DNA from: Dickeya dadantii NCPPB 898
GTDB lineage: Bacteria > Pseudomonadota > Gammaproteobacteria > Enterobacterales > Enterobacteriaceae
DNA: 17,000 bases
Assembly: GCF_000406145.1 (NCBI RefSeq)
Contig: NZ_CM001976.1
Coordinates: 1,814,961-1,831,960 of the forward strand
Reading direction: 5' to 3'
Part shown: positions 1,784-17,000 of the stretch, piece after piece
Layout: every line of letters begins with the position of its first letter
Numbering within the stretch: position 1 is the first letter of the stretch
Made by a program: the position numbers and the translations under genes
Notes under the pieces: model-generated
The model's database searches: none
What the model was told of the DNA's origin: nothing
What the model saw: the letters and a program-made list of their open reading frames with translations, nothing else

Positions 1784-1846
1784 CAGGGGCTGAGTTCCAA
1801 AGAGAAAACACTAACTGAAGTATCCAATTATCCTGGAGGCACCACC

Positions 1847-2323
1847 ATGTCCGATTCACAAATCCGTCCGCCACTGCCGCCGTTCACCCGCGAGTCAGCG
1901 CTTGAGAAAGTAAGACTTGCCGAAGATGGCTGGAACACCCGCGATGCCGATAAAGTGTCGCTCGCTTACTCTCTGGACACCAAATGGCGTAACCGCGCAG
2001 AGTTTGCAAATAATCGAGAAGAGGCCCGGGGTTTCCTCGAGCGCAAGTGGAAAAAAGAGCTGGAGTACCGTCTTATCAAGGAACTGTGGGCCTTTGACGG
2101 TGACCGCATTGCTGTCCGGTACGCTTACGAGTGGCGCGATGACTCCGGTAACTGGTTCCGTTCTTACGGGAACGAAAACTGGGAATTTGGTGAAGACGGG
2201 CTGATGCATCACCGCTACGCATGTATCAATGACATGCCGATTAAAGAAAGTGAGCGCAAGTTCCACTGGCCTCTGGGGCGCCGTCCTGACGATTATCCAA
2301 GCCTGTCTGACCTGGGTCTGTAA
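1847..2323 (+). CDS. DUF1348 / NTF2-like (SnoaL-fold) family protein
   Basis: 158 aa. It carries the conserved strings WNTRD...WRNRAEF...[10 protein letters not shown]...[30 protein letters not shown] that I recognise from DUF1348 proteins. GGAGG at 1835-1839 lies 7 nt before the ATG. It sits 63 nt downstream of the TetR gene (likely operon). Confidence 0.8.
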
Positions 2324-2530
2324 TTCATTGAGTTACCCCGCGTAACGCCCGCGACTACTGTCCTGGTCGGGGCTTTACTCAGCCAGTTGATGAAAAAAGC
2401 AAGCTGGTTGAGGCGGAGAGCTCTTAAGTTTTCTCAGTGCATGGTTTTTAAGGATCAAGTACGAGCGATGTGCTTTATTCATTTAAATCGCGTGCTATTT
2501 AATAGTAAAATATGTTAATGAGGCCGTATT

Positions 2531-3538
2531 ATGAATATTAAATCTATGTTTCTGACTGCCGCAATGGCGGCCGTCTCAGCCAACAGCTTTGCCGATGCTT
2601 CACAGCCAGAGCGTCACGTGCAGGAATTTCTCAGTGCCCTGAACGGCGCCGGGGGTAAGCCTATTGAACAGCTGTCTCCACGGGACGCACGACAGGTGCT
2701 GATCAACGCTCAGAAGGGTGCCAAACTGCCTGCTGCCGACGTCGCTGAAAAAACGATCAACGTTGAAGGCGGCTCCATCAAACTTCACATTGTGAAACCT
2801 AATAACGCACAGGGAATCTTGCCAGTTTTCATGTTCTTCCATGGCGGTGGCTGGATACTGGGCGACTTTGCGACACATGAACGACTCGTCCGTGATCTGG
2901 TCACCGAGTCCGGTGCAGCAGCCGTCTTTGTCGACTATACACCATCGCCGGAAGCGCATTTCCCGGTTGCGATTAATCAGGCCTATGCAGCAACCCGCTG
3001 GGTTGCCGAGCACGGTAGCGAGATTGGCGTTGACGGCAGTCGCCTGGCGCTGGTAGGTAACAGCGTCGGCGGTAACATGGTTGCTGCCGTAGCGCTCCAG
3101 GCCAAGCAACATAAAGCGCCGGCCATCCGCTATGAGGTCATGCTCTGGCCCGTGACTGACGCGAACTTCAATACTGGTTCTTATAACCAGTATGAGAACG
3201 GGTACTTCCTGTCGCGTAATATGATGAAGTGGTTCTGGGATGCATACACCACTAAAGAAGGCGATCGTAATAACATCCTGGCGTCGCCGCTGCGCGCAAC
3301 GCCTGAACAACTGAAGGGACTGCCGCCCACTCTGATTCAGACTGCCGAACTTGACGTACTGCGCGACGAAGGCGAGGCTTTTGGCCGCAAGCTTGATGCC
3401 GCTGGCGTCAACGTGACGGTTACCCGCTACAACGGGTTAATTCATGATTTCGGTCTGCTGAACGCGCTGAGCGACGTGCCTGCCGTGCGGACCGCACTTG
3501 GTCAGGCCGCCTATGAACTGAAAGAACACCTGAAGTAA
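2531..3538 (+). CDS. secreted alpha/beta-hydrolase fold-3 (hormone-sensitive-lipase family) esterase/lipase
   Basis: HGGGW oxyanion motif (2840-2854). GNSVGG nucleophile elbow with Ser codon at 3062-3064. Downstream acid ELDVLRDEG and His in GLIHDF. N-terminal signal peptide MNIKSMFLTAAMAAVSANSFA/DA. GAGG lies 7 nt upstream of the ATG. Confidence 0.9.
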   Translation: MNIKSMFLTAAMAAVSANSFADASQPERHVQEFLSALNGAGGKPIEQLSPRDARQVLINAQKGAKLPAADVAEKTINVEGGSIKLHIVKPNNAQGILPVFMFFHGGGWILGDFATHERLVRDLVTESGAAAVFVDYTPSPEAHFPVAINQAYAATRWVAEHGSEIGVDGSRLALVGNSVGGNMVAAVALQAKQHKAPAIRYEVMLWPVTDANFNTGSYNQYENGYFLSRNMMKWFWDAYTTKEGDRNNILASPLRATPEQLKGLPPTLIQTAELDVLRDEGEAFGRKLDAAGVNVTVTRYNGLIHDFGLLNALSDVPAVRTALGQAAYELKEHLK

Positions 3539-3549
3539 CTGCCAGCTAG

Positions 3550-3578
3550 CCGGTCGGTTTCATCGACCGGTCGTTTTT
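3550..3578 (+). terminator. rho-independent terminator of the esterase gene
   Basis: CCGGTCG (3550-3556), 7-nt loop, CGACCGG (3564-3570), followed by TCGTTTTT. It starts 12 nt after the stop codon. Confidence 0.6.
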
Positions 3579-3754
3579 GCCCTCTGTCCGTTGTCCGGGT
3601 TAGCGCGGAAATTTTTTGGAACCGGACTATTGAGTATTTACATACTTCCCCCCGTTAAGCGTGCGACCTGTTACTTATCGGGGGCTTTTTTCGACACAGT
3701 AATAACGACAAGGAGCCGATTGTACGGCATGCCGTTCCGCTGCAGGTAACGAAG

Positions 3755-4479
3755 TCATATACCTGTCTGGCGGTAGCGTGACTCGAGTTTGTCGAGAAAA
3801 GTGAATAATGCTCTGTTCATTTCGCTGTAGTCGTGGCTCCGTAATTCTTCCGGTGTCTGAACGAATCGATATTCTGCGGCCCGACGTAAATCCCTGTCGG
3901 AATGCGCGATCAGCAATTCGACAAGGGACGGTGTAAGTTCCATATGGCACTGAAACCCGTAGACCAGCTCAGAATAAGCAACTATCTGTCGTGGGCAACC
4001 TTCGCTGTAGGCGACGATCTCCGCCGCGGGCGTAAGTCCCGGCATGTCGTTATGCCAGTGCCCGACATCGAGCTTATTACCGAAGTGAGAAAACAGCGGG
4101 TTCCGTTCGCTTTCTGCGGTCATAAAAACTGGAAACTTGCCGATCTCTTTTTCCGGGCTGTGCGCGAAGCGTGCGCCCAGGGCTTCCCCGATCAGCTGGG
4201 CACCAAGGCAGACGCCGATGACGGCTTTCCCCAGATGTACTACAGAGGCAATAAGTGCCTGTTCAGCTCTTGAGTCAAAATGTGCACATTCATCAGGCGT
4301 GACGGACGGATCCTGCGGCCCCCCATGACTACCAGCAGATCGATATTCCGTGCATCTTCAGGAAGTTTCTGACCCGCATAAACGCGAGAGAAGGTTACCT
4401 CATGGCCACGAATCATGGCCCAGGTTTCAAACACGCCGGGTGCTTCAAAGTGTTCATGCACAATAAAATGTACTCGCAT
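3755..4479 (-). pseudogene. class-I (GMP-synthase-like) glutamine amidotransferase, single 1-nt frameshift
   Basis: ORFs 4240..4479(-) and 3755..4123(-) belong to one gene. The N-terminal frame reads ...NIDLLVVMGG, then shifts. My translation of the other frame from about 4316 gives QDPSVTPDECAHFDSRAEQALIASVVHLGKAVIGVCLGAQLIGEALGARFAHSPEKEIGKFPVFMTAESERNPLF..., which includes the catalytic G-x-C-x-G-x-Q motif (GVCLGAQL) and runs directly into the 122-aa ORF. One nucleotide is missing in the tract ATGGGGGGCC (plus-strand C6 run 4319-4324). The restored length would be 242 codons. Confidence 0.85.
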
Positions 4480-4569
4480 AGGCTTATATCCTTCAGAATC
4501 TTGATAAGTAATTAAGTCAGGCGCATATCACCCCCTGCGAAATACCGGTCGGGTAACGCCAGTCGGGAC

Positions 4570-5364
4570 ATGATAGATGTGAGGTTTGATTTTGAAATGT
4601 CAGTAAGCATCGATAAAACGCCAAGGCACGATGACTCAACAGGCTGGTCGGCGACCGCTATTTCCTACCGGCGTGGGGAAGAAGATCCCCCTCATTATCA
4701 CCTGGAAGGGCAACTTTTATACGCTAGCAGCGGCGTTCTGCTGGTTGAGGCCGCGGGCAGGCGATGGGTTATTCCCCCTCAACGGGCGCTCTGGCTGCCG
4801 CCGTTGATGGAACACTCATACAGACTTCTGTCGCGTACGGAGCTACGTGCAGTTTACTTCAGCGGTAGCCTGATTTCTGAGTGCGCACATTTCGCAAAGA
4901 ATGACCGGGTACATGTGATCGACGTGGTTCCGCTGGTAAAGGAATTAATAGCTGGCCTGTTTATAAATGATTACCACACGCTGACGAAGCGAAAAATGGC
5001 GCTTTTACTTCTGGAAATTATCGGTGAGGCACCATCCGTACCCGCAGAACTACCGATGCCGCAGGATGACCGATTATTCCGTGCTATAGGAGAGCTGATG
5101 TCCAGCCATCGCTGGGAAACCTCGTTAACCGATATGGCTGACATAGCAAACATGTCGGAAAGGTCTTTCTCCCGCCTGTTTTCACGTGATACGGGGTTCA
5201 GCTTCCGGACATGGAAGCAGCGCGCAAGAATATACGCATCACTGGATCTTCTTTCTGAAAACGTACCTGTAAAACAGATTGCCTGGCAGCTTGGTTTTTC
5301 ATCACCGGCCGCATTTTCCGCTGCGTTTCGTGCAGTTATGGGCCTGACTCCCGGTGAGTTTTGA
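4570..5364 (+). CDS. AraC family transcriptional regulator (cupin-like N-terminal sensor + HTH)
   Basis: The C-terminus LTDMADIANMSERSFSRLFSRDTGFSFRTWKQRARIYASLDLLSENVPVKQIAWQLGFSSPAAFSAAFRAVMGLTPGEF is a typical AraC double HTH. It is divergent from the amidotransferase. An alternative start is the ATG at 4597 (MSVSIDK). Confidence 0.9.
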   Translation: MIDVRFDFEMSVSIDKTPRHDDSTGWSATAISYRRGEEDPPHYHLEGQLLYASSGVLLVEAAGRRWVIPPQRALWLPPLMEHSYRLLSRTELRAVYFSGSLISECAHFAKNDRVHVIDVVPLVKELIAGLFINDYHTLTKRKMALLLLEIIGEAPSVPAELPMPQDDRLFRAIGELMSSHRWETSLTDMADIANMSERSFSRLFSRDTGFSFRTWKQRARIYASLDLLSENVPVKQIAWQLGFSSPAAFSAAFRAVMGLTPGEF

Positions 5365-5495
5365 CGGAGGTTCAGTTGGGGGGACGGTGACAAATCGGGT
5401 ATTGACGCTATCCGGCACAGTGTCGATGCTGACGCCGCGACTATCAGGTGTTAAACGAAAAGAGACGGAACACACCGCGACTGAAAACGTAGGCG

Positions 5496-5518
5496 GCCCG
5501 GCTTTTCAGTCGCCGGGC
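5496..5518 (-). terminator. possible terminator hairpin downstream of cynS
   Basis: GCCCGGC (5496-5502), 9-nt loop, GCCGGGC (5512-5518). On the minus strand a short TTTT follows only about 9 nt after the stem, so it is weak as an intrinsic terminator. Confidence 0.35.
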
Positions 5519-5533
5519 TGAATTCTGAGAGGA

Positions 5534-6004
5534 TCAGAAAGGTTTGGTCGGCAGGTACTTGCCGTCCAGGGTGATCACCGCACGATGGCCACCATCCGGA
5601 TCATCAACTTTCTTGATATCCAGTTTGAAGTTAATGGCGCTGATAATGCCGTCGCCAAATTTCTCATGAACCAGAGCCTTAAGAGTAGGCCCGTAAACTG
5701 ACATCATCTCGTAGAAACGGTAGATTGTCGGATCGGTCGGGATGCCATCGGTAAAGCTGCCGCGGACGGGTACTGACTGCAACAGTTTAACGTCATCAGC
5801 ATTCAGATCGAGCTTCTTGCCGACAACGACTGCTGCGTCGGCAGGCAACGGATGCTGACCAAGCAGGGCTGCAGTAACGAAGGCTTCTGACAAACCTGTG
5901 CCGTCAACGATTTCGGAGAAGGAGAGTTCCTTGCGTGCCTTAGCCAGAATAATGGTTTCGGTGAGTGCCTGACGTGCGGCCTGAGTGACTTGAATCTGGA
6001 TCAT
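5534..6004 (-). CDS. cynS: cyanase (cyanate hydratase)
   Basis: 156 aa, collinear with E. coli CynS as I remember it, for example ...[22 protein letters not shown]... and the C-terminal [44 protein letters not shown]. Confidence 0.97.
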
Positions 6005-6031
6005 GGTCTTTTCTCCTGGTAAGTAAGGGGT

Positions 6032-6382
6032 TCAGGCAACATGCCTGGCTTGCGAGGAAACGGCGTTAACTTCTGGATTTTCAGCAAGGGACACGAAGGC
6101 GCGGGTTGTGCCATCAAAAGTATCAATGCAACCACTCCCAATGTCATAGAGCCAGCCGTGCAGAGTTACCCGGCCTTCTTCAAGCGCCAGGCGAACGGAT
6201 GGGTGAGTCTGGATGTTAGCCAACTGAGCGATGACGTTTTCGCGCACCATAGCCGCGACTTTGGTTGGCTGATCCGGATGAGGTCGGGATTCGTTCACGA
6301 CTCTGGCCGAGTCAGCATATAGCAGCCAGTTGGCAACGGCGGGCATATGATCCAGACACTTGCAGGTGGCGATGGCCGTCAT
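6032..6382 (-). pseudogene. cynT: beta-class carbonic anhydrase CynT, 5'-truncated (C-terminal ~116 of ~219 residues)
   Basis: [35 protein letters not shown]...[33 protein letters not shown] matches the E. coli CynT segment that follows ...CGHSNCGA. The upstream part, with the Cys/His/Cys zinc ligands, the promoter and cynR, is absent. Homology stops at about 6383, where trbF-like sequence begins. Confidence 0.9.
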
Positions 6383-6385
6383 TGA

Positions 6386-6633
6386 ACGAGTCCGTCACGG
6401 TGCAGATTGCCAGTGTGGTGCGCTCCAGCGATCGATCGTTTGAAGTGCGCTGGAGCGAACAACACTTTGCCCAAGGCACTCCGTCGGAGACCGAACGCTG
6501 GACTGCCATGCTGACCGTTGTGCAGCACACGCCGCGTACCGAGCAGCAGTTACGGCTGAATCCGTTGGGCGTCTATATCAACGGCCTGTCGTGGAGCCGG
6601 GAACTGGCGATGCCGGAAGGCGGTCAGCCATGA
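6386..6633 (+). pseudogene. trbF: 3' fragment of conjugal transfer gene trbF (VirB8-like), last ~82 codons
   Basis: [28 protein letters not shown]...ERWTAMLTVVQHTPRTEQQLRLNPLGVYINGLSWSREL resembles the conserved TrbF C-terminus (..V.V.SVVR.SD.SFQVRW.E.......RWTAILTV......... .NPLGLYV....WSREL). The first ~40 codons of ORF 6265..6633 are antisense cynT sequence, not trbF. Confidence 0.75.
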
Positions 6634-6795
6634 GAACGTGGTGGTATTACGGTCCTGTCTGTTACCTGATACTGGCACTGATCGGGTGTCGTGGTATGGG
6701 AAACCGGCCACCGGTTGTCGATCTGGACGAGCCGGCTCCGACAGCCTCGGTTCCGATGCCTCCGGCCTCCATAGTGGTGGGGAAGGGGGAGAACG
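6630..6795 (+). pseudogene. trbG: 5' fragment of trbG (VirB9-like): signal/lipobox N-terminus only
   Basis: The ATG at 6630 overlaps the trbF stop (ATGA), as in trbF-trbG-trbI operons. MRTWWYYGPVCYLILALIGC has a lipobox-like LIGC, followed by a Pro-rich NRPPVVDLDEPAP...VPMPP. The frame then runs into trbI-derived sequence in another frame. Confidence 0.45.
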
Positions 6796-7347
6796 GAGCG
6801 CCTTCGTTCCGACCTGCCGGGGCCGGTGATCGCCACCGTCACCGAACCGGTCTACGACACGGCGACCGGGCATTATCTGCTGATCCCGCAAGGCTCGCGC
6901 TTACTGGGTAAATACAATAGCCAGGTCAGCTATGGGCAAAGCCGGGTTCAGGTGGTCTGGAACCGCATTATCCTGCCGGATACGTCGTCGCTGACGCTGG
7001 ATAATCTGGCCGGTGCCGACCCGGCCGGTTACGTCGGGCTGGAAGATCAGGTGGACTGGCATTGGGATCGTGTGATTGCCGGCGCGGCAATGACCACACT
7101 ACTGGGGGTGGGTGCTGAACTGGCTGCCCCGGAGAACCGACAGCATGGCGATCGCATTATTCTTGCCGGACGTGACAGTTTGCAGGATTCGGTCAGTCAG
7201 GCGGGACAAGAACTTACCCGGCGTAACCTCGATATTCAGCCGACACTGACCGAACGGCCAGGCCTGCCGGTTCGTATCATCGTCAACCGGGATTTGGTGT
7301 TAAGGCCGTATCAACCGCTGTTTTTTAATCAGGGGAGTGCGAACTGA
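6796..7347 (+). pseudogene. trbI: 3' portion of trbI (VirB10-like), about 180 C-terminal codons, no start
   Basis: The frame of ORF 6826..7347 is open from 6775. (L)RSDLPGPVIATVTEPVYDTATGHYLLIPQGSRLLGKYNSQVSYGQSRVQVVWNRIILPD...GADPAGYVGLEDQVDWHW...IQPTLTERPGLPVRIIVNRDLVL is the conserved TrbI/VirB10 C-terminal domain. Confidence 0.85.
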
Positions 7348-7360
7348 AGGGGGAATGGAC
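7102..7360 (+). repeat. left copy of direct repeat (trbI 3' end + 13 nt past the stop)
   Basis: 7117-7360 aligns gap-free with 15858-16101 (offset 8741). I count 14 mismatches in 244 nt. Weaker similarity extends to about 7102 versus 15844. Confidence 0.95.
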
Positions 7361-7618: not shown

Positions 7619-10600
7619 ATGCGATACGACACCATCCCTGCACAAGCGATACGCCATGACAGCTCCCGGATGGATGGAGAGCAATGGCCACTCAGCTCTC
7701 CTCAGCAGGTCATATGGTTGGAGCAAATACTTCACCCAGACTCCAGTCACTATAATCTGGGCCTGCTCTATCGTATTGAGGGCAGGCTTGATCAGGCACT
7801 GTTCGTCCAGGCGGTAGAAATTTCTGTGGAGCGCCACGATGCGCTGCGCCTGCAACTTAAAGAGATCAATGAGCCCATTCAGGTACTCTGTAACAGCGCG
7901 CCTATCCCGACTCGTATCCACGACCTGTCTGGTTGCACAGACCCGGAAGCTGAGCTGGATAAACACGTCAACGCCCTGGTTAGGCAGGCGTTTGACTTAA
8001 CAGGGCAACTCTGGCGTTCTGACTTGCTGCGGATTAGCGAGTCGTGCTGGTATTGGCATTGTTGCTGTCATCATTTGATTCTGGATGGTCGTAATATCAT
8101 CCTGATTATGAGAGAGGTTGCGGATACGTATACCCGCTTGATCAATAAAGTGGGTATGGCGGAACGAGCGCCATCCTACCTCGATTTTATTACAGAGGAT
8201 CTCGCCTATTTCCATTCAGCGGGCTATAGCCAGGACCGGGATTTCTGGTTGGAGCGTTATGCAACGCTGCCCCCAATACTCATTCCTGCAAATAGTACTC
8301 ACATGAGTCATGAGGTGTCCGAGTCACCGCTACGTTGGCAGCTTGAGGCACCGCTATTAAAAACCATCGAGGCAATGCTTAATGAACACCGCCTATCGCT
8401 GTTGCACTTTATGTATGCGTTGTTGGCATGCTACTTCACGCGAACGACGGGTGAGCGGGACATCGTCATTGGTATTCCGGTGCATAACCGTCGTAACGCC
8501 AGGCAAAAAAATACGATAGGGATGTTCGCATCCGTCATTCCTGTGAGGATTTGCATAGCGGATCAGGATACATTCCTGGATGTGATGCATAAATGTGCAA
8601 GCGAACTGCGAAAGTGTCATAAACATCAACGCTTTCCTATATCGGAAATCAATCGTCACACTAGAGTCCAGCAAAAGACTGGACGTTCTCAGCTATTTGA
8701 TATTTTGCTATCGCTGGAGTTGTTCGAAACGAATGCGTCAATGGAGTACTGTAGTATTAGCCTGGTCGGGGTGCATCGCGGCACTTCCAATCCGCTTGCC
8801 ATCAGTATTCAACAATACAAGTACTCCCAAGATGATGACAATACGCCTGTTACCATTGAGTTCAGTTGTGCACCAGGCCATTTGAGCAAGATGGAGGTCG
8901 AGGCGCTACAGCGACGGCTGAGCGTGTTATTAGGGGCAGCGCTTCGTGGTCCAGATACGCTGATTAACCACTTATCGATGTTATCTGACGCCGAGCGTCG
9001 GCAATTACTGGCCGACTTCAATGCGACGCAGGCGGCGTTCCCGCAAGAGACGCTGCTCCACCAGCTGTTCGAAGGGCAGGTCGGGCAGACGCCGGACGCC
9101 ACCGCGGTGGTCTTTGACGGGCAGTCGCTGAGCTATGCTGAACTGAATGCCCGCGCCAATCGCGTTGCACACAGCCTGATTAGCCTGGGCGTGCAGCCGG
9201 ACGAACGGGTGGCAGTCTGTGCAGAGCGCAGCCTGGAGATGGTGGTGGGTATCCTGGCGATCCTCAAGGCCGGTGGCGCGTATGTGCCGCTGGATCCGGC
9301 ATACCCTTCAGCGCGTCTGGCGTATATGCTCGCGGATGCACAGCCGGTGGCGCTTCTCACGCAAAGGGCGTTGCAGGCAAACCTGGGTTCAGACCTGCCG
9401 ACACTGCTGCTCGATGCCGACATGGGCAGCACAGACAGCGACAACCCGGTTGTTCCGGGCCTGAGTGCCAGGCACCTTGCCTATGTGATCTACACCTCCG
9501 GATCGACCGGGCAGCCCAAAGGGGTGGCGATGCAGGCTGCGGCACTCCTGAACTTATTATATTGGCATCGACAAGAACCGTCATCGATCACGATGGCAGA
9601 CAAAACATTACAGTTTGCAGCACTGGGGTTTGACGTTGCCTTTCAGGAAATATTCGCAACATTAAGCCAGGGGGGATCGCTGGTCTTGATCCGTGAAGAG
9701 ACGCGACGGAACCCTTTGGCAATACTGCATTTAATTGAGAAAGAACACATCACACGGATATTTTTGCCTTACATTGCATTACAGCAACTGGCAGAAACCA
9801 CTAATCTGCAGACCATTAATTTAAAATGTTTAAAACACATTGTTACTGCCGGTGAGCAGTTACACATTACCCCCGCTATACGCAAGCTATTACAAGCTAA
9901 CCCGCATTGCCAATTACATAACCATTATGGCCCGAGCGAAACACATGTCGTTACGAGCTATATTCTGAATTCACCCAGTGAGTTAAACATCAGTTTTCCG
10001 CCCATTGGCCGACCGATCGCCAACACCCGGATCTACATCCTCGACCCGCATGGCCAGCCGGTTCCGGTGGGTGTCAGGGGGGAAATCCACATCGCCGGCG
10101 CCGGCGTTGCCCGGGGCTATCTGAACCGCCCGGAACTCACCGCTGCGCGCTTCCTGGCGGATCCGTTCGCAGGCCAGCCCGGTGCGCGGATGTACCGAAC
10201 CGGGGATCTGGGACGCTGGCTGCCGGATGGCACGATCGAATACCTGGGCCGTAATGACTGCCAGGTCAAAATCCGGGGCTTCCGTATCGAACCCGGAGAG
10301 ATCGAAGCGTGTCTGGTACAGTGCGCCGGCGTGCGCGAAGCGGTGGTGATTGCACGCGAAGACAGCCCGGGTGACAGGCGTCTGGTGGCCTATCTGGTCG
10401 CGGAAGCCGGTATCCTTCCCGAACCCGCCGGGCTGCGTCAGGCGCTGGCGCAGCAACTGGCGGACTATATGCTGCCGTCGGCGTATGTGCGGCTGGATGC
10501 GCTGCCGCTGACGCCCAACGGCAAGCTCGATCGCCACGCCTTGCCCGCGCCGGATCAGGGCGCGGTGGTCAGCCGGGGCTATGAGGCGCCGGCAGGCGAG

Positions 10601-10717
10601 ATTGAAACGGCGCTGGCGCAAATCTGGCAGGATGTGCTGGGGGTGGCGCGCGTCGGACGGCACGATCACTTCTTCGAACTCGGCGGGCATTCGCTGCTGA
10701 CTGTCACAGCTGATTGA
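7619..10717 (+). CDS. NRPS segment 1: C1-A1-(N-terminal part of T1)
   Basis: 1032-aa ORF ending ...FFELGGHSLLTVTAD*, only 7 codons after the phosphopantetheinyl Ser codon (10691-10693). Confidence 0.85.
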   Translation: MRYDTIPAQAIRHDSSRMDGEQWPLSSPQQVIWLEQILHPDSSHYNLGLLYRIEGRLDQALFVQAVEISVERHDALRLQLKEINEPIQVLCNSAPIPTRIHDLSGCTDPEAELDKHVNALVRQAFDLTGQLWRSDLLRISESCWYWHCCCHHLILDGRNIILIMREVADTYTRLINKVGMAERAPSYLDFITEDLAYFHSAGYSQDRDFWLERYATLPPILIPANSTHMSHEVSESPLRWQLEAPLLKTIEAMLNEHRLSLLHFMYALLACYFTRTTGERDIVIGIPVHNRRNARQKNTIGMFASVIPVRICIADQDTFLDVMHKCASELRKCHKHQRFPISEINRHTRVQQKTGRSQLFDILLSLELFETNASMEYCSISLVGVHRGTSNPLAISIQQYKYSQDDDNTPVTIEFSCAPGHLSKMEVEALQRRLSVLLGAALRGPDTLINHLSMLSDAERRQLLADFNATQAAFPQETLLHQLFEGQVGQTPDATAVVFDGQSLSYAELNARANRVAHSLISLGVQPDERVAVCAERSLEMVVGILAILKAGGAYVPLDPAYPSARLAYMLADAQPVALLTQRALQANLGSDLPTLLLDADMGSTDSDNPVVPGLSARHLAYVIYTSGSTGQPKGVAMQAAALLNLLYWHRQEPSSITMADKTLQFAALGFDVAFQEIFATLSQGGSLVLIREETRRNPLAILHLIEKEHITRIFLPYIALQQLAETTNLQTINLKCLKHIVTAGEQLHITPAIRKLLQANPHCQLHNHYGPSETHVVTSYILNSPSELNISFPPIGRPIANTRIYILDPHGQPVPVGVRGEIHIAGAGVARGYLNRPELTAARFLADPFAGQPGARMYRTGDLGRWLPDGTIEYLGRNDCQVKIRGFRIEPGEIEACLVQCAGVREAVVIAREDSPGDRRLVAYLVAEAGILPEPAGLRQALAQQLADYMLPSAYVRLDALPLTPNGKLDRHALPAPDQGAVVSRGYEAPAGEIETALAQIWQDVLGVARVGRHDHFFELGGHSLLTVTAD
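7685..8980 (+). other. C1: N-terminal condensation domain (no upstream carrier domain in cis)
   Basis: WPLSSPQQVIWLEQILHPDSSHYNLG (C1-like motif). Active site HHLILDG at 8069-8089. IGMFASVIPVRI and HQRFPISEI (C5/C6-like motifs). Confidence 0.8.
8985..9526 (+). repeat. intragenic repeat A, copy 1 (C-A linker to A3 motif of module 1)
   Basis: Aligns gap-free with 12235-12776 (offset 3250). I count 8 mismatches in 542 nt. Confidence 0.95.
9030..10540 (+). other. A1: adenylation domain, extracted code D-V-Q-F-V-A-H-V-V-K (proline-like)
   Basis: Motifs LSYAELNARAN, LKAGGAYVPLDP, YTSGSTGQPKGV, FDVAFQE, NHYGPSE, GEIHIAGAGVARGYLNRPELT, YRTGDLGR, GRNDCQVKIRGFRIEPGEIE, NGKLDR. Code positions were placed by hand alignment to GrsA-PheA (235,236,239,278,299,301,322,330,331,517). 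Confidence 0.8.
10004..10692 (+). repeat. intragenic repeat B, copy 1 (IGRPIANT... through A6-A10 to the GGHS of T1)
   Basis: Aligns with 13221-13910 (offset 3217, becoming 3218 after the 1-nt indel). I count 23 substitutions plus 1 indel in about 689 nt. Confidence 0.95.
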
Positions 10718-10800
10718 ACGGTTGCGCCGTCTGGAGATGAAACTGGATGTGCGTAGTGTCTTTAGTACGCCTACCCTCAGTGATATGGCACGGGCGATTG
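10580..10800 (+). other. T1: peptidyl carrier domain, disrupted by a +1 frameshift near 10706
   Basis: YEAPAGEIETALAQIWQDVLGVARVGRHDHFFELGGHSLLTV / QLIERLRRLEMKLDVRSVFSTPTLSDMARAI. Skipping one nucleotide at about 10706 restores a canonical PCP. Confidence 0.85.
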
Positions 10801-13800
10801 GCCAGCCGCAAGGGAATACGGGCGCCTTTGTGGCGCCACCGAACCTGATTCCCGATGGGTGTACGGCAATCACCCCAGAAATGCTGCCGTTAGTCGCGCT
10901 CTCCCAGGCGGAGATCGAGACTATCGTTGCGGCCATTCCGGGGGGCGCGGCCAACGTTCAGGACATTTATCCGCTCGCGCCACTGCAGGAGGGGATATTG
11001 TTTCATCACCTGCTACAGCAACAGGGTGATAACTATTTGTTGCGCAGCATCCTGGCCTTTGATTCACGCTCGCGTCTGGATGCCTTCCTCAGTGCCTTGC
11101 AGCAGGTGATCGATCGTCACGATATTCTGCGCAGCAGTCTGTGTTGGCACCACCTGCCCCAGCCGGTGCAGGTGGTATGGCGCCAGGCCAGCTTGCCTGT
11201 GGCCGAACTTCCGCTTGTGAGCGAAGAAGACGCACTGACGCAACTGCAGGCGTACTCGGATCCGCGTACACGCCGCCTTGATCTGGGCCGCGCGCCGCTG
11301 TTCTTTAGCGATATCGCCTACGACGCCAGGCAGGACGAATGGTTGCTGGCGCTGGGATTCCACCACATTGTGACTGATCATATGAGCCTGGAATTGATCG
11401 TCGCGGAGATTGGCGAGATTCAGCAGGGGAGGGGAGCGGGCTTGGCACCCTGCTTCCCCTACCGCCACTTTGTTGCACAAAGCCGCAGTGTGCCAGCGGC
11501 AGTCCATGAGGAGTACTTCCGCAGTCAGTTGCAGGAGGTTGAAGAGCCCACTGCACCCTTTGGCATTCTTGAGCCGACACAGGATAACGCGGAGATTGCC
11601 GAAGCCCGGCTGATGCTGGATAGCGACCTGGCCATGGCCATTCGTCAGCAGGCACGACAACTGGGTATCAGCCCTGGCGTGTTGTTCCATGTTGCCTGGG
11701 CGCAGGTACTGGCGCAAACCAGCGGATGTGACGATGTGGTCTTTGGTACCGTGCTACTCGGCCGTTTGCAAGGGGGGGCCAATGCTGGACAGACGCTGGG
11801 CATGTTTATCAATACGTTGCCGCTGCGTCTGACGCTGGCACAGCAAGGTGTGCTGGAGGTGGTGCATGGCGCCTACCGTCAGTTGATGGTGCTGCTTGAA
11901 CATGAGCAGGCACCATTGTCGCTGGCACAACGCTGTAGCGGTGTTGCGCCGTTACTGCCACTATTTGGTAGCCTGCTTAATTACCGCCATAGTCGTGCAG
12001 CAGAGACTCTACAGGCATGGGAGGGGATGCGAATGCAGTATTTTGAGGAGCGCACCCACTATCCGTTTGCCCTGTTTGTCGACGATCTGGGCCAGGACTT
12101 TAGTCTGACGGCACAGTGTGTATCGGCTATCGACCCGGCACGGCTCAATGCGTATATGCTGACGGCGATGACAGGACTGCTGCAGGCCTTGGCATCGGAT
12201 CCGCGACAGCAAATTCTGAGCATACCGATTCTGCCTGACGCCGAGCGTCGGCACTTACTGGCCGGCTTCAATGCGACGCAGGCGGCGTTCCCGCAAGAGA
12301 CGCTGCTCCACCAACTGTTCGAAGGGCAGGTCGGGCAGACGCCGGACGCCACCGCGGTGGTCTTTGACGGGCAGTCGCTGAGCTATGCTGAACTGAATGC
12401 CCGCGCCAATCGCGTTGCACACAGCCTGATTAGCCTGGGCGTGCAGCCGGACGAACGGGTGGCAGTCTGTGCAGAGCGCAGCCTGGAGATGGTGGTGGGT
12501 ATCCTGGCGATCCTCAAGGCCGGTGGCGCGTATGTGCCGCTGGATCCGGCATACCCTTCGGCGCGTCTGGCGTATATGCTCGCGGATGCACAGCCGGTGG
12601 CGCTTCTCACGCAAAGGGCGTTGCAGGCAAACCTGGGTTCAGGCCTGCCGACACTGCTGCTCGATGCCGACATGGGCAGCACAGACAGCGACAACCCGGT
12701 TGTTCCGGGCCTGAGTGCCAGGCACCTTGCCTATGTGATCTACACCTCCGGATCGACCGGACAGCCGAAGGGGGTGATGGTTGAGCATGCTTCGGTCGTT
12801 AATTTCTTGTCCTCAATGACAACGCAGCCCGGCTTGAGTGCTAATGACAAGTTGTTGGCATTGACGACCTTAAGCTTCGATATTGCTGGACTAGAGCTCT
12901 ATTTGCCGTTGATCAGGGGGGCTCAATGTCTTCTTGTTTCGCATGAAACGAGCAAGCAGGCTGATAAGTTGTGTGGGATGATCGAGCGCCTCAGGCCTAG
13001 TGTGATACAAGCCACTCCATCCACCTGGTCCATGCTTTTGCAGCAGGACTGGATTCCAGGAGCAGGACTTAAAGTGTTGTGTGGTGGTGAAGCAATGAGC
13101 AGCACGCTCAGGCAACAGTTAATAGCGAGTGCTGCAGAAGTCTGGAACCTTTATGGACCGACTGAAACCACAATATGGTCGCTCACATCACGGGTTCTTT
13201 CTATGGAGGGAACCTTGTCAATTGGCCGTCCGATCGCCAACACCCGGATCTACATCCTCGACCCGCATGGTCAGCCGGTTCCGGTGGGTGTCAGGGGGGA
13301 AATCCACATCGCCGGCGCCGGCGTTGCCCGGGGCTATCTGAACCGCCCGGAACTCACCGCTGCGCGTTTCCTGGCGGATCCGTTCGCAGGCCAGCCCGGT
13401 GCGCGGATGTACCGAACCGGGGACCTGGGACGCTGGCTGCCGGATGGCACGATCGAATACCTGGGTCGTAATGACTGCCAGGTCAAAATCCGGGGCTTCC
13501 GTATCGAACCCGGAGAGATCGAAGCGTGTCTGGTGCAGTGCGACGGCGTGCGCGAAGCGGTGGTGATTGCACGCGAAGACAGCCCGGGTGACAGGCGTCT
13601 GGTGGCCTACCTGGTCGCGGAAGCCGGTATTCCTCCCCGAACCCGCCGGGCTGCGTCAGGCACTGGCGCAGCAGCTGGCGGACTATATGCTGCCGTCGGC
13701 CTTTGTGCGGCTGGATGCGCTGCCGCTGACGCCCAACGGCAAGCTCGATCGCAAGGCCTTACCGGCCCCGGATCAGAGCGCGGTGGTCAGCCGGGGCTAT

Positions 13801-13802
13801 GA
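10722..13802 (+). CDS. NRPS segment 2: (C-terminal part of T1)-C2-A2 up to the A9 region; the last ~55 codons are out-of-frame read-through
   Basis: This frame is open from 10701 and encodes (S)QLIERLRRLEMKLDVRSVFSTPTLSDMARAI, the rest of T1. The TTG at 10722 has no Shine-Dalgarno sequence. The tail IPPRTRRAASGTGAAAGG... is the shifted reading of the A2 C-terminus. Confidence 0.8.
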   Translation: MRRLEMKLDVRSVFSTPTLSDMARAIGQPQGNTGAFVAPPNLIPDGCTAITPEMLPLVALSQAEIETIVAAIPGGAANVQDIYPLAPLQEGILFHHLLQQQGDNYLLRSILAFDSRSRLDAFLSALQQVIDRHDILRSSLCWHHLPQPVQVVWRQASLPVAELPLVSEEDALTQLQAYSDPRTRRLDLGRAPLFFSDIAYDARQDEWLLALGFHHIVTDHMSLELIVAEIGEIQQGRGAGLAPCFPYRHFVAQSRSVPAAVHEEYFRSQLQEVEEPTAPFGILEPTQDNAEIAEARLMLDSDLAMAIRQQARQLGISPGVLFHVAWAQVLAQTSGCDDVVFGTVLLGRLQGGANAGQTLGMFINTLPLRLTLAQQGVLEVVHGAYRQLMVLLEHEQAPLSLAQRCSGVAPLLPLFGSLLNYRHSRAAETLQAWEGMRMQYFEERTHYPFALFVDDLGQDFSLTAQCVSAIDPARLNAYMLTAMTGLLQALASDPRQQILSIPILPDAERRHLLAGFNATQAAFPQETLLHQLFEGQVGQTPDATAVVFDGQSLSYAELNARANRVAHSLISLGVQPDERVAVCAERSLEMVVGILAILKAGGAYVPLDPAYPSARLAYMLADAQPVALLTQRALQANLGSGLPTLLLDADMGSTDSDNPVVPGLSARHLAYVIYTSGSTGQPKGVMVEHASVVNFLSSMTTQPGLSANDKLLALTTLSFDIAGLELYLPLIRGAQCLLVSHETSKQADKLCGMIERLRPSVIQATPSTWSMLLQQDWIPGAGLKVLCGGEAMSSTLRQQLIASAAEVWNLYGPTETTIWSLTSRVLSMEGTLSIGRPIANTRIYILDPHGQPVPVGVRGEIHIAGAGVARGYLNRPELTAARFLADPFAGQPGARMYRTGDLGRWLPDGTIEYLGRNDCQVKIRGFRIEPGEIEACLVQCDGVREAVVIAREDSPGDRRLVAYLVAEAGIPPRTRRAASGTGAAAGGLYAAVGLCAAGCAAADAQRQARSQGLTGPGSERGGQPGL
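10962..12230 (+). other. C2: condensation domain with N-terminal HHLxxxxGD motif and variant active site HHIVTDH
   Basis: DIYPLAPLQEGILFHHLLQQQGDNYL (HHLLQQQGD at 11004-11030). HHIVTDH at 11361-11381. LGMFINTLPLRL. Confidence 0.8.
12235..12776 (+). repeat. intragenic repeat A, copy 2 (module 2)
   Basis: See copy 1. Both copies start at CTGACGCCGAGCGTCGG (..DAERR..) and end at ..AAGGGGTG (..PKGV). Confidence 0.95.
12280..13755 (+). other. A2: adenylation domain, extracted code D-I-L-Q-L-G-L-I-W-K (glycine), with a +1 frameshift at about 13630-13638
   Basis: Motifs as in A1, except for the core: SFDIAGLE, LCGGEAM, NLYGPTETTIW. K517 equivalent lies in QVKIRG. Confidence 0.8.
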
Positions 13803-13910
13803 GGCGCCGGCAGGCGAGATTGAAACGGCGCTGGCGCAAATCTGGCAGGATGTGCTGGGTGTGGCGCGTGTTGGACGGCACGATCACTTCTTCGAGCTCG
13901 GCGGGCATTC
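13221..13910 (+). repeat. intragenic repeat B, copy 2 (module 2)
   Basis: See copy 1. Identity ends within the Ser codon of GGHS (TCG versus TCT) in both modules. Confidence 0.95.
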
Positions 13911-15711
13911 TCTACTTGCCGTGCGCCTATTGAACCGTATGCGAGAGGAGGGCCTCGATCTTCCATTAGCCTCTTTATTCACCACCCCAATACTGTGTGA
14001 TTTGGCCATGGTTATCGGTCCGCCTTCTTTTACCCAGTCAAGTTCTCCCTTTGATGCTAATCCGGTACCATTAAGACCAGAAGGCAGTTTACGGCCTTTA
14101 TTCTTGGTACACGAGACCTCTGGTGATCCACTGGTTTATTCGCCGCTGGCAGCCTTACTTCCATCTGAATTACCCGTCTACGTATTACAGGCTATAGGTA
14201 TTCAGAATGTAGCTACTGTACCCGAATCGATTGAGGCACTTGCAGCCTGCCATATCCAGGCCATTCGTCGAGTCCAGCCTCAAGGACCTTACCGCTTTGC
14301 TGGATGGTCAATGGGAGGTGTCGTCGCCTACGAGATAACTGTACAACTGCTTCAGAGTGGTGAGCGTGTCGAGTTCCTCGGTATGATCGATTCCTGTAAC
14401 CACAAAGGACTGGATACAAACCATCTTCAATCGTGTGATGCTCAACAGGTCTCTCGTGAAATGTTCATTAAAGCGTTGGTTGAAAACTTTGATGTCAGCG
14501 TCGAGCAAGTGACAGGGTTGTGTCAGATCGCGGATCTCGATCAATTGGTGGATCGTTGTATTGAGCTTTCCTATCTCCCTGCAGATATTTCACGTGAGGA
14601 TGTTTTAGTGCGTATCAATACCATTGAAACCCTGACACGCCTGTTACAGCGTTATACACCATCAGCATCACAGGTTCCTATCTACCTTTATACAGCGGAA
14701 GAGGCATTGAGTGACGATGTTTGGAGGGGTTGGCGTGATCTTGTGGATAGTCATTCTCAGCTTCGCTCTATAGGAGGAACCCATGGATCAATCATGCGCC
14801 AGCCCTTACTAAGTCAATTGGCTGATGCCATAAGAGAAGATTTGCTGCCGAAGCATGGCTATAATCCGTGCGTTATCATTCAGCGTGGCTCACCATCTCG
14901 CCTTCCACTGTTTTGTATCCCAGGTGCCGGGGCTAGTGCTTTCAGCCTGCTGGAACTGGCTTTGTCGTTGCCAGCGTCGTTGCCGGTCCATGCCCTGGAG
15001 GCGCCAGGTCTGGCTGATGCGCGGATAGCACCGTATAACAGTGTTGAAAGCTATGCGCGAGCTTATACGCAAAAGATCCGTCAGACGCAGGCTCACGGAC
15101 CTTATCATCTCCTCGGCCATTCCTTTGGGGGCTGGATCGCCTTTGAAATCGCTCTTCAACTGCAAGAACATGGGGAAAGCGTTGCTAATTTGATGCTAAT
15201 TGATAGCGAAGCCCCTGACCCTCAGGGGAGGCCGTCCAAGTCTGTCGACCGTGTTGAGACGCTGATGAAGTTGATTGAGATTTATAATATGACGCTCGAT
15301 CAACCGCTTGGGCTTGTTCGAGAGGATTTTAAGGGCCGAGATGCAGATGCGCAGCTGCAGTTTTTGTTTGCGGTGCTGAAAGGAGCCGGGCTTTTCCCTG
15401 AAAATGCCCAAATCACACTGTTGCAAGGTATCGTCCAAGTGATGCAGGCTAATTTGAATAGCAGTTACACCCCGAGAGCGCGCTTTCATGGTCAGGTTCA
15501 TCTGGTCAGTGCTATGGACAGTGACAGGAGGGAGCGACAAGGCATGGAGTCGGGCTGGAGGAAGCATGTCGAAGAACTGGGGACGCTGGTGGTACCGGGT
15601 AACCATATGACGATGCTATTGAGGCCTAATATAGAGTCGCTGGCAGGTTATTTGTGGCTGCGGCTGGACACAGCCAGTAACTCGGGGATCGTAGGGAAAA
15701 GTTATAAATAG
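13567..15711 (+). CDS. NRPS segment 3: A2 C-terminus (A9-A10)-T2-TE1-TE2; meaningful coding begins at about 13639
   Basis: From [40 protein letters not shown] onward it matches the module-1 sequence. The first ~24 codons ([22 protein letters not shown]) are the wrong frame of A2. Confidence 0.8.
   Translation: [714 protein letters not shown]
13798..14010 (+). other. T2: peptidyl carrier domain
   Basis: [73 protein letters not shown]. Ser codon at 13909-13911. Confidence 0.85.
14089..14850 (+). other. TE1: thioesterase domain
   Basis: [23 protein letters not shown] (Ser codon 14308-14310). LGMIDS (Asp candidate). GGTHGSIM (His candidate). Confidence 0.8.
14902..15660 (+). other. TE2: second thioesterase domain
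   Basis: [26 protein letters not shown] (Ser codon 15121-15123). LMLIDSEAP (Asp candidate). VPGNHMTML (His candidate). Confidence 0.8.
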
Positions 15712-15843: not shown

Positions 15844-16101
15844 GCTGGGGGGGAGTTGAACTCGCTGCCCCGGGGAACCGGCAACATGGCGATCGTATTA
15901 TCCTTGCCGGACGTGACAGCTTGCAGGATTCGGTCAGTCAGACGGGACAAGAGCTCACCCGGCGTAACCTCGATATTCAGCCGACACTGACCGAACGGCC
16001 AGGTCTGCCGGTTCGTATCATCGTCAATCGGGATTTGGTGTTAAGGCCGTATCAGCCGCTGTTTTTTAATCAGGGGAGTGCGAACTGAATGGGGAATGGA
16101 C
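15844..16101 (+). repeat. right copy of direct repeat (trbI 3' end)
   Basis: 15858-16101 matches 7117-7360 with 14 mismatches in 244 nt and no gaps. Confidence 0.95.
15858..16088 (+). pseudogene. trbI: second, shorter trbI 3' fragment (last ~76 codons + stop)
   Basis: Translates ELAAPGNRQHGDRIILAGRDSLQDSVSQTGQELTRRNLDIQPTLTERPGLPVRIIVNRDLVLRPYQPLFFNQGSAN*, nearly identical to the end of the 6796-7347 fragment. It has no start codon and no upstream trbI sequence. Confidence 0.85.
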
Positions 16102-16141: not shown

Positions 16142-16453
16142 TTATCTGGAACGGTAGCGTGCCGACACATCCCGGGCGGTATGCAATAGTCGCAAGATAT
16201 GTACGTCGCCGCTGTGGCGTTTCAGCGCATAGACCAAAATAAACGGGAGCCGGGTCAGCACCAGTTTACGTCGTTCTCCCGACTTCCCTATGCTGACGCC
16301 CGCTTCCGGGGTGGTTTCCAGCAGCGCCACTGCGGCGGCGAATTTGTCATCGGTGGCATTGGCGACCTCCAGTCCCGCGTTCTGGTACAGGTAACGGTAA
16401 ATGTCTTCGCGGTCAGCGATAGCTTGCCTTTCCCAACGAACGGTTGCCGTCAC
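16142..16453 (-). CDS. type II toxin, ParE/RelE superfamily
   Basis: 103 aa: (M)TATVRWERQAIADREDIYRYL...LPFILVYALKRHSGDVHILRLLHTARD, typical ParE/RelE size and C-terminal I.R.LH..RD pattern. The GTG start overlaps the upstream stop (GTGA). Confidence 0.75.
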   Translation of the reverse strand: MTATVRWERQAIADREDIYRYLYQNAGLEVANATDDKFAAAVALLETTPEAGVSIGKSGERRKLVLTRLPFILVYALKRHSGDVHILRLLHTARDVSARYRSR

Positions 16454-16734
16454 AGTTCCCCCCGGGCGGCTTGCGCTTTCAGCGCCGCCATACGTTGACT
16501 GGCCTCGTCATTGCTGATGAACTGGGCCTCACCGGCATCGTAACGGGCGAAGGCTTCCTGAATTTTTGCTTCCAGCCATTCATCACCGGTATGGCGCTGA
16601 TACTGTCGCTCTTCCTCGGCCAGTTCTTCCGCACGCTGGCGCATCAGTTCGGTAAGACTGACCTGCTGACGCTCAGCAGCCTTCATGGCCAGACGTTTGG
16701 TTTCCTCGTCAATTCTGAAGTGTATTGTCCCCAT
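16450..16734 (-). CDS. type II antitoxin, ribbon-helix-helix (ParD/DinJ-like)
   Basis: 94 aa. The N-terminal TIHFRIDEETKRLAMKAAERQQVSLTELMRQ looks like an RHH strand-helix-helix. It lies upstream of the toxin and is translationally coupled to it. Confidence 0.65.
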   Translation of the reverse strand: MGTIHFRIDEETKRLAMKAAERQQVSLTELMRQRAEELAEEERQYQRHTGDEWLEAKIQEAFARYDAGEAQFISNDEASQRMAALKAQAARGEL

Positions 16735-17000
16735 AACCGCCTCCGATAGATTGTATGTGTTGTCACTTGTGGTGTCATTTTATCCAATCTCGTCAGTTTT
16801 TGCTGCTTTTTTGAAGGGAGAACCGCCTTTACTGGTGCCGTAAAAAGCTTGTCGAATTCTAAGGATCACAGTGGCGGTTTTGTTGTAGAGGCTAAATAGC
16901 TGCGGCTAATACCGCTACACCTACCGTTTACTGACATGTGGCATGTTGCGTAAGGGCAACACATCCGAGGCCTTATGTAGAACAGCCAGACAGAGAAAAC

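Follow-up and report, generated by a model that had tools for sequence, protein, structure and literature searches.

A stretch of 17,000 nucleotides (nt) from Dickeya dadantii NCPPB 898 (NCBI RefSeq assembly GCF_000406145.1, contig NZ_CM001976.1, positions 1,814,961 to 1,831,960 of the forward strand), called the window below and numbered from its first letter, was analysed for the structure of a gene for a non-ribosomal peptide synthetase (NRPS). The gene lies on the plus strand at 7619-15711 and is assembled in three frames, with open reading frames (ORFs) at 7619-10717, 10722-13802 and 13567-15711. Its two adenylation (A) domains are built from near-identical flanks, referred to here as shells, around specificity cores that are unrelated to each other at the DNA level, and both cores differ from the shells in base composition and amino-acid usage.

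Domain order of the synthetase gene

The domain content was read from Pfam matches that lie well over the curated cut-offs. The first ORF holds Condensation, AMP-binding, AMP-binding_C and a truncated PP-binding domain, the second holds Condensation, AMP-binding and a partial AMP-binding_C, and the third holds PP-binding followed by two Thioesterase stretches. With C, T and TE for condensation, thiolation and thioesterase domains, the order is C-A-T / C-A / (A)-T-TE-TE, and by content and order the locus is a modular NRPS. The solved structures closest to the N-terminal condensation domain (C1, 7619-8984) are those of the starter domain RzmA-Cs (7C1H, 7C1K and 7C1P, E 8e-38), with the next match at 2.5e-24. 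From this nearest relative and its place as the first domain in the gene, C1 is assigned to the starter condensation (Cs) type and is predicted to use an acyl donor. The second condensation domain, C2, carries an N-terminal HHLLQQQGD (..LFHHLLQQQGDNY..) in addition to its active-site motif HHIVTD (..HHIVTDHMS..). Dual condensation/epimerisation (C/E) domains reportedly have an extra N-terminal HH[I/L]xxxxGD besides HHxxxDG, and we take HHLLQQQGD, recognised by its sequence, to be that extra motif. Taken together, the gene would encode a bimodular synthetase of the lipopeptide type, Cs-A(Pro-like)-T-C/E-A(Gly)-T-TE-TE, the predicted product of which is an N-acyl-(D-)Pro-Gly peptide.

Along the gene, segments of different GC content and third-codon-position GC (GC3) follow one another. 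C1 has a GC content of 0.50 and a GC3 of 0.55. It is followed by the left shell of A1 (FL1, 8985-9526), which comprises the C-A linker and motifs A1-A3, ends in ..TSGSTGQPKGV, and has GC 0.64 and GC3 0.75. The A1 specificity core of 159 codons with motifs A4-A5 (9527-10003) drops to GC 0.447 and GC3 0.46, after which the right shell (FR1, 10004-10692; GC 0.67, GC3 0.76) runs from IGRPIANT through motifs A6-A10 and the A-T linker into the first half of T1, as far as the Ser of GGHS. The second half of T1 and C2, delimited with Pfam at 10712-12234, have GC 0.58 and GC3 0.62-0.65. In module 2, the left shell FL2 (12235-12776; GC 0.65, GC3 0.75) is a copy of FL1, the A2 core of 148 codons occupies 12777-13220 (GC 0.495, GC3 0.53), and the right shell FR2 (13221-13910; GC 0.66, GC3 0.74-0.76) is a copy of FR1. 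The second half of T2 and the two tandem thioesterase domains (Pfam PP-binding and Thioesterase) complete the gene at 13911-15711, with GC 0.50 and GC3 0.41-0.49.

Repeated shells around divergent cores

A preliminary description made from the letters of the window had reported two near-identical repeats separated by strongly different cores, and realignment bore this out in every number. The left blocks, 8985-9526 and 12235-12776, differ at 8 positions in 542 nt (9004, 9015, 9064, 9310, 9393, 9511, 9517 and 9520), which corresponds to 98.5% identity. The right blocks, 10004-10692 and 13221-13910, are 96.5% identical and differ by 23 substitutions and one indel of 1 nt at 10413/13631; 8 of the substitutions lie in 10004-10412 and 15 in 10413-10692. 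Across the blocks, the identity of the two shells is 94.6-98.5%, and a repeat finder run independently returned the same blocks. The cores are only 36.5% identical in nucleotides on a codon alignment and share 39 residues over their 148-159 positions, or about 25% at the amino-acid level. In a control set of 104 same-locus A-domain pairs from 22 related NRPS loci, the left flank had a median nucleotide identity of 68%, the core one of 54% and the right flank one of 73%; the pair in the window (98/52/97.6) is the extreme of the 104. The shared shells therefore go far beyond chance or ordinary motif conservation.

Four junctions delimit the shells, all of them abrupt at the nucleotide level, and seven of the eight that result over the two modules are in frame and at homologous codons. 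Since the final 16 nt of the left block (9511-9526) carry three synonymous differences, the left inner junction falls within the codons of GQPKGV, the last of motif A3. The right inner junction is located just before IGRPIANT, at 10004. The left outer junction is where the C domain passes into the C-A linker (..DAERR), with FNATQ about 10 residues further on. On the right, identity stops between 10679 and 10692 (13897-13910 in module 2), inside FFELGGHS and at its Ser codon. The inner and the outer breakpoints are therefore those that had been described. Six of the 23 right-flank substitutions are clustered within 25 nt (10535-10559), where they cause His/Lys and Gly/Ser changes just after motif A10; this cluster may be a patch that escaped the last conversion.

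For the pocket residues, both A domains were aligned to a fragment of GrsA-PheA, which reproduced DAWTIAAICK and K517 at the expected numbering; positions 278 and 331 of A2, where the automatic alignment had a gap, were assigned manually. In this sequence-based mapping of the breakpoints, the exchanged core is equivalent to PheA 201-347. The nine variable positions (235-331) all lie inside it, and only the invariant Lys517 is found in the right flank, as the preliminary description had stated. The Stachelhaus codes also agree with it, being DVQFVAHVVK (Pro-like) for A1 and DILQLGLIWK (Gly) for A2. The A1 code recurs in homologues from Xenorhabdus miraniensis and X. innexi.

Composition of shells and cores

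The shells and the cores belong to different compositional classes in both modules. GC3 is 0.74-0.76 in the flanks against 0.46 in core 1 and 0.53 in core 2, and the first codon position follows the same course (GC1 0.72-0.80 in the flanks, 0.48-0.51 in the cores). Maximum-likelihood change-points in GC were placed at 8989, 9549, 9998, 12775, 13224 and 13907, each within about 25 nt of an identity boundary and in both modules, and weaker steps were found at 10665 and 12233. The change-point at 9549 was rejected as a separate junction, as it reflects the Ala-rich start (AMQAAALL) of the Pro-type core instead. The GC-rich class continues unbroken from FR1 through T1-C2 to FL2, with weak change-points only, while FL1 and FR2 appear as GC-rich islands with sharp steps toward the low-GC C1 (8989) and T-TE (13907). 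Given these sharp steps at C1|FL1 and FR2|T2, it would be too simple to call the shell "the recipient". In composition, the cores are like C1 and the TE region.

Among 63 A domains of relatives, the flank-minus-core difference in GC3 is 0.000 ± 0.054 with a maximum of 0.111, compared with +0.295 in module 1 and +0.208 in module 2. The flank-minus-core excess of Gly, Ala, Arg and Pro (GARP) is 0.156 and 0.168 in the two modules, against 0.047 ± 0.027 in the same set. Both cores are thus outliers by about 4-5.5 standard deviations in GC3 and amino-acid usage. An intrinsic GC offset of Pro-type cores or of flanks was considered as a cause and rejected, since the 63 related A domains show none on average and it cannot explain the window; X. 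innexi likewise has no flank/core offset, and X. miraniensis has a weak one. A high-flank/low-core pattern in X. lircayensis (locus L021) proved to be an artefact of masked N runs (2244-2269 and 2708-2789). We infer that shell and cores evolved in different genomic backgrounds, with neither core native to the shell. With both cores foreign in this way, each module needs one core/shell chimerisation at minimum, and a single swap in a duplicated module is insufficient.

Divergence and probable homogenisation of the shell copies

The differences between the shell copies are 24 synonymous and 9 non-synonymous, with ratios of non-synonymous to synonymous divergence (dN/dS) of 0.28, 0.05 and 0.11 over the three blocks formed by the left block and the right block before and after its indel. 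Being mainly synonymous, these differences indicate copies that evolved under purifying selection and not a repeat collapse. Synonymous divergence (dS) is 0.036 in the left block, 0.068 in the right block before the indel and 0.18 after it. This heterogeneity gives p of about 0.003 in a chi-square test and p = 0.002 in a Fisher test of the left against the last block, the split at the indel being chosen post hoc. The pattern fits repeated or partial gene conversion between modules, or a donor with unevenly homogenised modules, and does not fit one duplication date; the idea that the repeats record a recent, single event was accordingly not upheld. Homogenisation stops where the sequence becomes position-specific, namely at the core, at the C-domain type (Cs versus C/E) and at that half of T which lies toward C/E or TE.

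A block of about 700 nt, from before A6 to the T-domain GGxS, also occurs as an intragenic direct repeat of 81-86% identity in unrelated NRPS loci. It was found at 4538-5236/7865-8563 of locus L004, at 9086-9781/12452-13147 of L015 and several times in L013, with the same boundaries as the right flank of the window, which points to this block as a possible general unit of conversion.

Relatives of the segments

Exact-protein look-ups with the first and third ORFs returned no identical protein on record. No near NRPS relative was found by megablast against plasmids and E. coli genomes, and none among 5.8 billion proteins searched with the first ORF, core 1 and core 2, in genomes of GTDB searched with T1-C2, or in metagenomes searched with module 1. 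The best matches per segment are at 51-83% amino-acid identity and at most about 73% nucleotide identity. They differ from segment to segment: Pseudomonas arsenicoxydans for the left flank (70% amino-acid identity), X. eapokensis for the right flank (78-83%), Xenorhabdus for core 1 (59-61%) and Chromobacterium amazonense for core 2 (66%). The suggestion that flanks and cores would have different closest relatives therefore holds for the best protein neighbours, but all of them are too distant for a phylogenetic test.

The closest whole proteins are NRPSs of Xenorhabdus, Pectobacterium and Pseudomonas. The nearest co-linear homologue is encoded by X. miraniensis (NITZ01000019.1; protein P0001, locus L025 10001-15118) with the order Cs-A(DVQFVAHVVK)-T-C/E-A.., and it shares C1 (51%), core 1 (59%, with the same code) and T-C2 (60%) with the synthetase of the window. 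This hints that the C1-core1-C2 combination may be old. The two left flanks of the X. miraniensis homologue are only 63% identical to each other. The gene leaves its contig inside A2 and so cannot show a Pro-Gly orthologue, and the X. innexi homologue (P0004) is part of a much larger assembly line. Most of the Xenorhabdus NRPS loci L001-L012 have a GC content of about 0.51-0.54, the others being L008 (0.44) and L009 and L011 (about 0.48). Xenorhabdus genomes have a GC content of about 0.44, with which an import of these loci from GC-richer bacteria would be consistent.

Frameshifts

As assembled, the reading frame is interrupted. Two insertions of 1 nt, which the preliminary description had missed, split the gene into three frames. 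The first lies in T1 just past GGHSLL, at 10698-10711 and about 8-20 nt beyond the right outer joint, and was placed by spacing against the T domains of proteins P0001, P0003 and P0011. There, frame 2 reads ..GGHSLLTVTAD* and frame 3 goes on ..SQLIERLRRLEMKLDVRSVFSTP..; in other words, the module 1 frame ends with ..FFELGGHSLLTVTAD* and the remaining T domain (SQLIERLRRLEMKLDVRSVFSTPTLSDMA..) is in the +1 frame. The second is located within FR2 at about 13631, between motifs A8 and A9/A10, where GGTATTCCTCCCCG stands against GGTATCCTTCCCG in the intact copy 1. With one nucleotide removed at each site, a single ORF of 2,696 amino acids is obtained. The two frameshifts are either real, in which case the gene is a pseudogene, or errors of the assembly. 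A functional gene, and with it a productive diversification of modules as had been proposed, is unsupported while these insertions interrupt the frame.

Origin of the mosaic

The reading that we consider likely is that the NRPS DNA was pieced together like a patchwork from two or more compositional lineages, with both A domains being shell/core chimeras, and is not the outcome of one swap. Homologous recombination or gene conversion would have linked the patches where the DNA codes for conserved motifs. Both shells would derive from one shell lineage and were probably re-homogenised by intragenic gene conversion at different times, and at least one core/shell chimerisation would have taken place in each module. 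Two histories fit this patchwork about equally. In one, a GC-rich A-T-C/E-A-T(half) block took up two AT-richer cores and joined an AT-richer Cs and T-TE-TE, which matches the published canonical direction. In the other, an AT-richer Cs-A(Pro)-T-C-A(Gly)-T-TE-TE gene was overlaid by three GC-rich blocks except at its cores; for this history two parents suffice, and it accounts for the likeness of the cores to C1 and TE. A tentative and somewhat doubtful extension is that the shell was the mobile unit, so that a GC-rich chassis (the C-A linker to A3 and the part from before A6 to the T-domain Ser, with the C/E domain between) was laid around the resident cores of an AT-richer Pro-Gly synthetase and was kept uniform by intragenic conversion.

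The model of the preliminary description was that an A(-T) unit was duplicated and that a single recent swap of the A4-A5 piece in one copy then changed the specificity. Near-identical flanks and sharp junctions that bracket exactly the specificity-bearing piece are what this model predicts, and it invokes the canonical natural mechanism. Yet one of the two cores should then be native and match the shell in composition, whereas both are outliers (GC3 offsets of +0.30 and +0.21), GC change-points occur at both inner junctions in both modules, and the five-fold spread of flank dS misfits one duplication date, so that a single swap is unlikely. Concerted evolution of old paralogous A domains with GC-biased conversion, in which the cores had become too diverged to convert and no foreign DNA was involved, would explain why dS is heterogeneous and why conversion ends where homology ends, and the recurrence of the repeats from before A6 to GGxS in the relatives L004, L013 and L015 also speaks for it. 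It is nevertheless very improbable, because strongly homogenised relatives (L013 at 94%, L010 and L006) show a flank GC enrichment of 0.05 at most, the shifts in GC1 and GARP usage imply long residence in different genomic backgrounds, and C1|FL1 and FR2|T2 mark steps that are just as sharp, with no homogenised sequence spanning either of them. GC-biased gene conversion was accordingly rejected as the sole cause of the flank GC. An artefact of assembly or polishing, either mis-ordering over repeats of 540-690 nt or a contig chimera of the NRPS genes of two organisms, is quite improbable. The repeats do exceed short-read length, the NRPS frameshifts fall within the right-flank repeat or close beside it, with another indel at 4322, and no identical protein is recorded elsewhere; however, the 31 sites that distinguish the copies are strongly biased toward synonymous changes, which collapse or mis-polishing would not give, seven of the eight junctions are in frame at homologous codons, and lineages of 45% and 66% GC would share no assembly k-mers. 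Furthermore, mis-assembly scrambles repeats and does not create them.

Several observations weigh against the patchwork. Both NRPS frameshifts are located in the right-flank repeat or within about 20 nt of it (post hoc p of about 0.03 if placed at random in the gene), a clustering that could result from assembly or polishing trouble in repeats, and a third 1-nt indel at 4322 breaks an unrelated gene, which makes the sequence quality uncertain. In the X. miraniensis homologue, composition alternates in the same sense but less strongly, with GC3 of 0.37-0.42 in Cs and core against 0.47-0.52 in the shell (flanks and C2), so that part of the GC contrast could be older or intrinsic. The GC3 of C2 in the window is intermediate (0.65), and a simple two-parent model is therefore approximate. 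Finally, the collections searched hold no close homologue of any segment and yielded no donor lineage, for which reason flank and core trees, or recombination detection with RDP or GARD on homologues, would be uninformative.

Genomic surroundings

The NRPS gene is embedded by itself in what is left of a conjugative element, within an Enterobacter-like context. Upstream, 1844-6382 is 85% identical to a segment of an Enterobacter cloacae plasmid (OW849001) that carries nlhH, nimR, cynS and a gene for carbonic anhydrase. In the window, this last gene breaks off at 6382, and the synteny with OW849001 stops at the same position. The third indel is a 1-nt deletion at 4322 (GGCCC-CCCATG, versus GGCCCTCCCATC in the Enterobacter cloacae plasmid), which splits a GATase-like gene of 241 amino acids (3755-4479, minus strand) into two ORFs. 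The presence of three frameshifts in 17 kb reflects either an indel problem of the assembly or a decaying region.

The remnant of the conjugative element occupies 6032-7347 and contains, as leftovers of type IV secretion genes, C-terminal fragments of VirB8/TrbF (6265-6633) and of TrbI (6826-7347); trbG, normally found between the genes for TrbF and TrbI, is absent from it. Direct copies of the 3' end of trbI flank the NRPS gene at 7106-7360 and 15847-16101 (255 nt, 93% identical, including the stop codon and about 13 nt beyond). This arrangement suggests that two related conjugative elements may have recombined and so captured the gene or left it stranded. The flanking trbI fragments with their 93% identity and the decay of the surrounding conjugative element, together with the 31 mostly synonymous differences between the shell copies, led to the rejection of an engineered construct as an explanation of the gene. 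Directly past the second trbI fragment, a gene for a ParE-family toxin (16142-16453, minus strand) overlaps one for a RelB/DUF6290-like antitoxin (16450-16734, minus strand). Farther downstream, 73 nt at 16891-16963 match, with 92% identity, a site on the chromosome of about 70 E. coli genomes. In E. coli 05-3629 this site overlaps the end of a hypothetical gene, which has an ISEc1 transposase gene on one side and an RHS-repeat gene on the other. The 73-nt sequence is neither a tRNA nor a member of an Rfam family, and scans of the whole window for tRNAs and Rfam families found nothing.

Relation to known recombination systems and significance

Recombination targeted at the A core is the predominant natural route of non-ribosomal peptide diversification, with diverse breakpoints at core motifs, and in natural swaps the C-A linker, A subdomain (A-sub) and T domain usually remain the native ones (Baunach et al. 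2021, PMC8097286). Natural cases include McyB/McyC of microcystin synthesis, Ahp-cyclodepsipeptides and HrmO/P of hormaomycin synthesis (PMC8097286; Fewer et al. 2007, PMC2174460; Crüsemann et al. 2013 as cited in PMC8097286). As in these swaps, the pocket-bearing piece of the window has its own history, its junctions are at core motifs and its flanks are near-identical paralogues; the inner segments are unrelated, enclose the pocket residues and differ in composition from the flanks. Unlike them, which usually involve a larger part of the A core, the exchanged piece is near-minimal (PheA 201-347), the shared shell begins at the C-A linker, reaches into the middle of T and is set off in composition from C1 and T-TE, and both cores are foreign to the shell.

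The flavodoxin-like subdomain (FSD) used in engineering comprises 139 residues with nine of the ten pocket residues, and its swaps need an FSD identity of more than about 55% to succeed (Thong et al. 2021, PMC8616955). The cores of the window likewise hold nine of ten pocket residues and exclude Lys517, as do the engineered swaps (Kries et al. 2015; PMC8616955), with 148-159 residues here versus 139. In contrast to the engineered cases, the two cores are about 25% identical and sit in a common shell, with an activity that is predicted only. The piece here also starts right after A3 (PKGV) and so includes the helix equivalent to PheA HKGISNLKVFFENSLNV, which is outside the engineered FSD.

A natural breakpoint inside the T-domain motif FFxxGGxS has been described, with the second T half going together with the C or TE domain downstream of it (Bozhüyük et al., bioRxiv 10.1101/2022.12.02.518901). 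The shared blocks of the window end in FFELGGHS at this kind of breakpoint, used for thiolation-domain exchange units (XUT), with the second half of T going with C/E in module 1 and with TE in module 2, where the joint coincides with the GC change-point at 13907. Here, unlike in XUT, the breakpoint is the end of an intragenic homogenised block and not of an inter-cluster exchange, and module 1 has a 1-nt insertion just past it. In overall layout, the gene is like the starter-C lipopeptide NRPSs of Xenorhabdus, Pseudomonas and Mycetohabitans (e.g. RzmA, rhizomide, PMC7804268) in having a Cs domain, a second C domain of C/E type and tandem TE domains, but it differs in having two modules only, in being a solitary gene within a conjugative-element remnant, and in its best per-domain identity of 51-64%.

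The locus is a very clean natural case of a pattern that is well known already; as recombination within A domains and at the motif of the T domain is established, no new mechanism is revealed. The point added by this analysis is that the compositional outliers include both cores and not just one of them. Provided that the assembly is correct and that the enzyme is active now or was so recently, the composition would reveal both cores as chimeric with the shell, and one gene would combine, resolved to the codon, all three classes of junction that are used in engineering, i.e., the C-A linker of exchange units (XU), the FSD boundaries after A3 and before A6, and the GGxS of XUT in the T domain. 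Under the same provisos, one chassis that holds both a Pro-type and a Gly-type core would be a candidate permissive chassis, with cut sites already tested, for engineering by subdomain swaps. If, moreover, it was the shell that moved, the exchange would be an "inverse subdomain swap" that preserves product specificity, and one natural chassis would host cores that are only about 25% identical, far outside the range of engineered FSD swaps.

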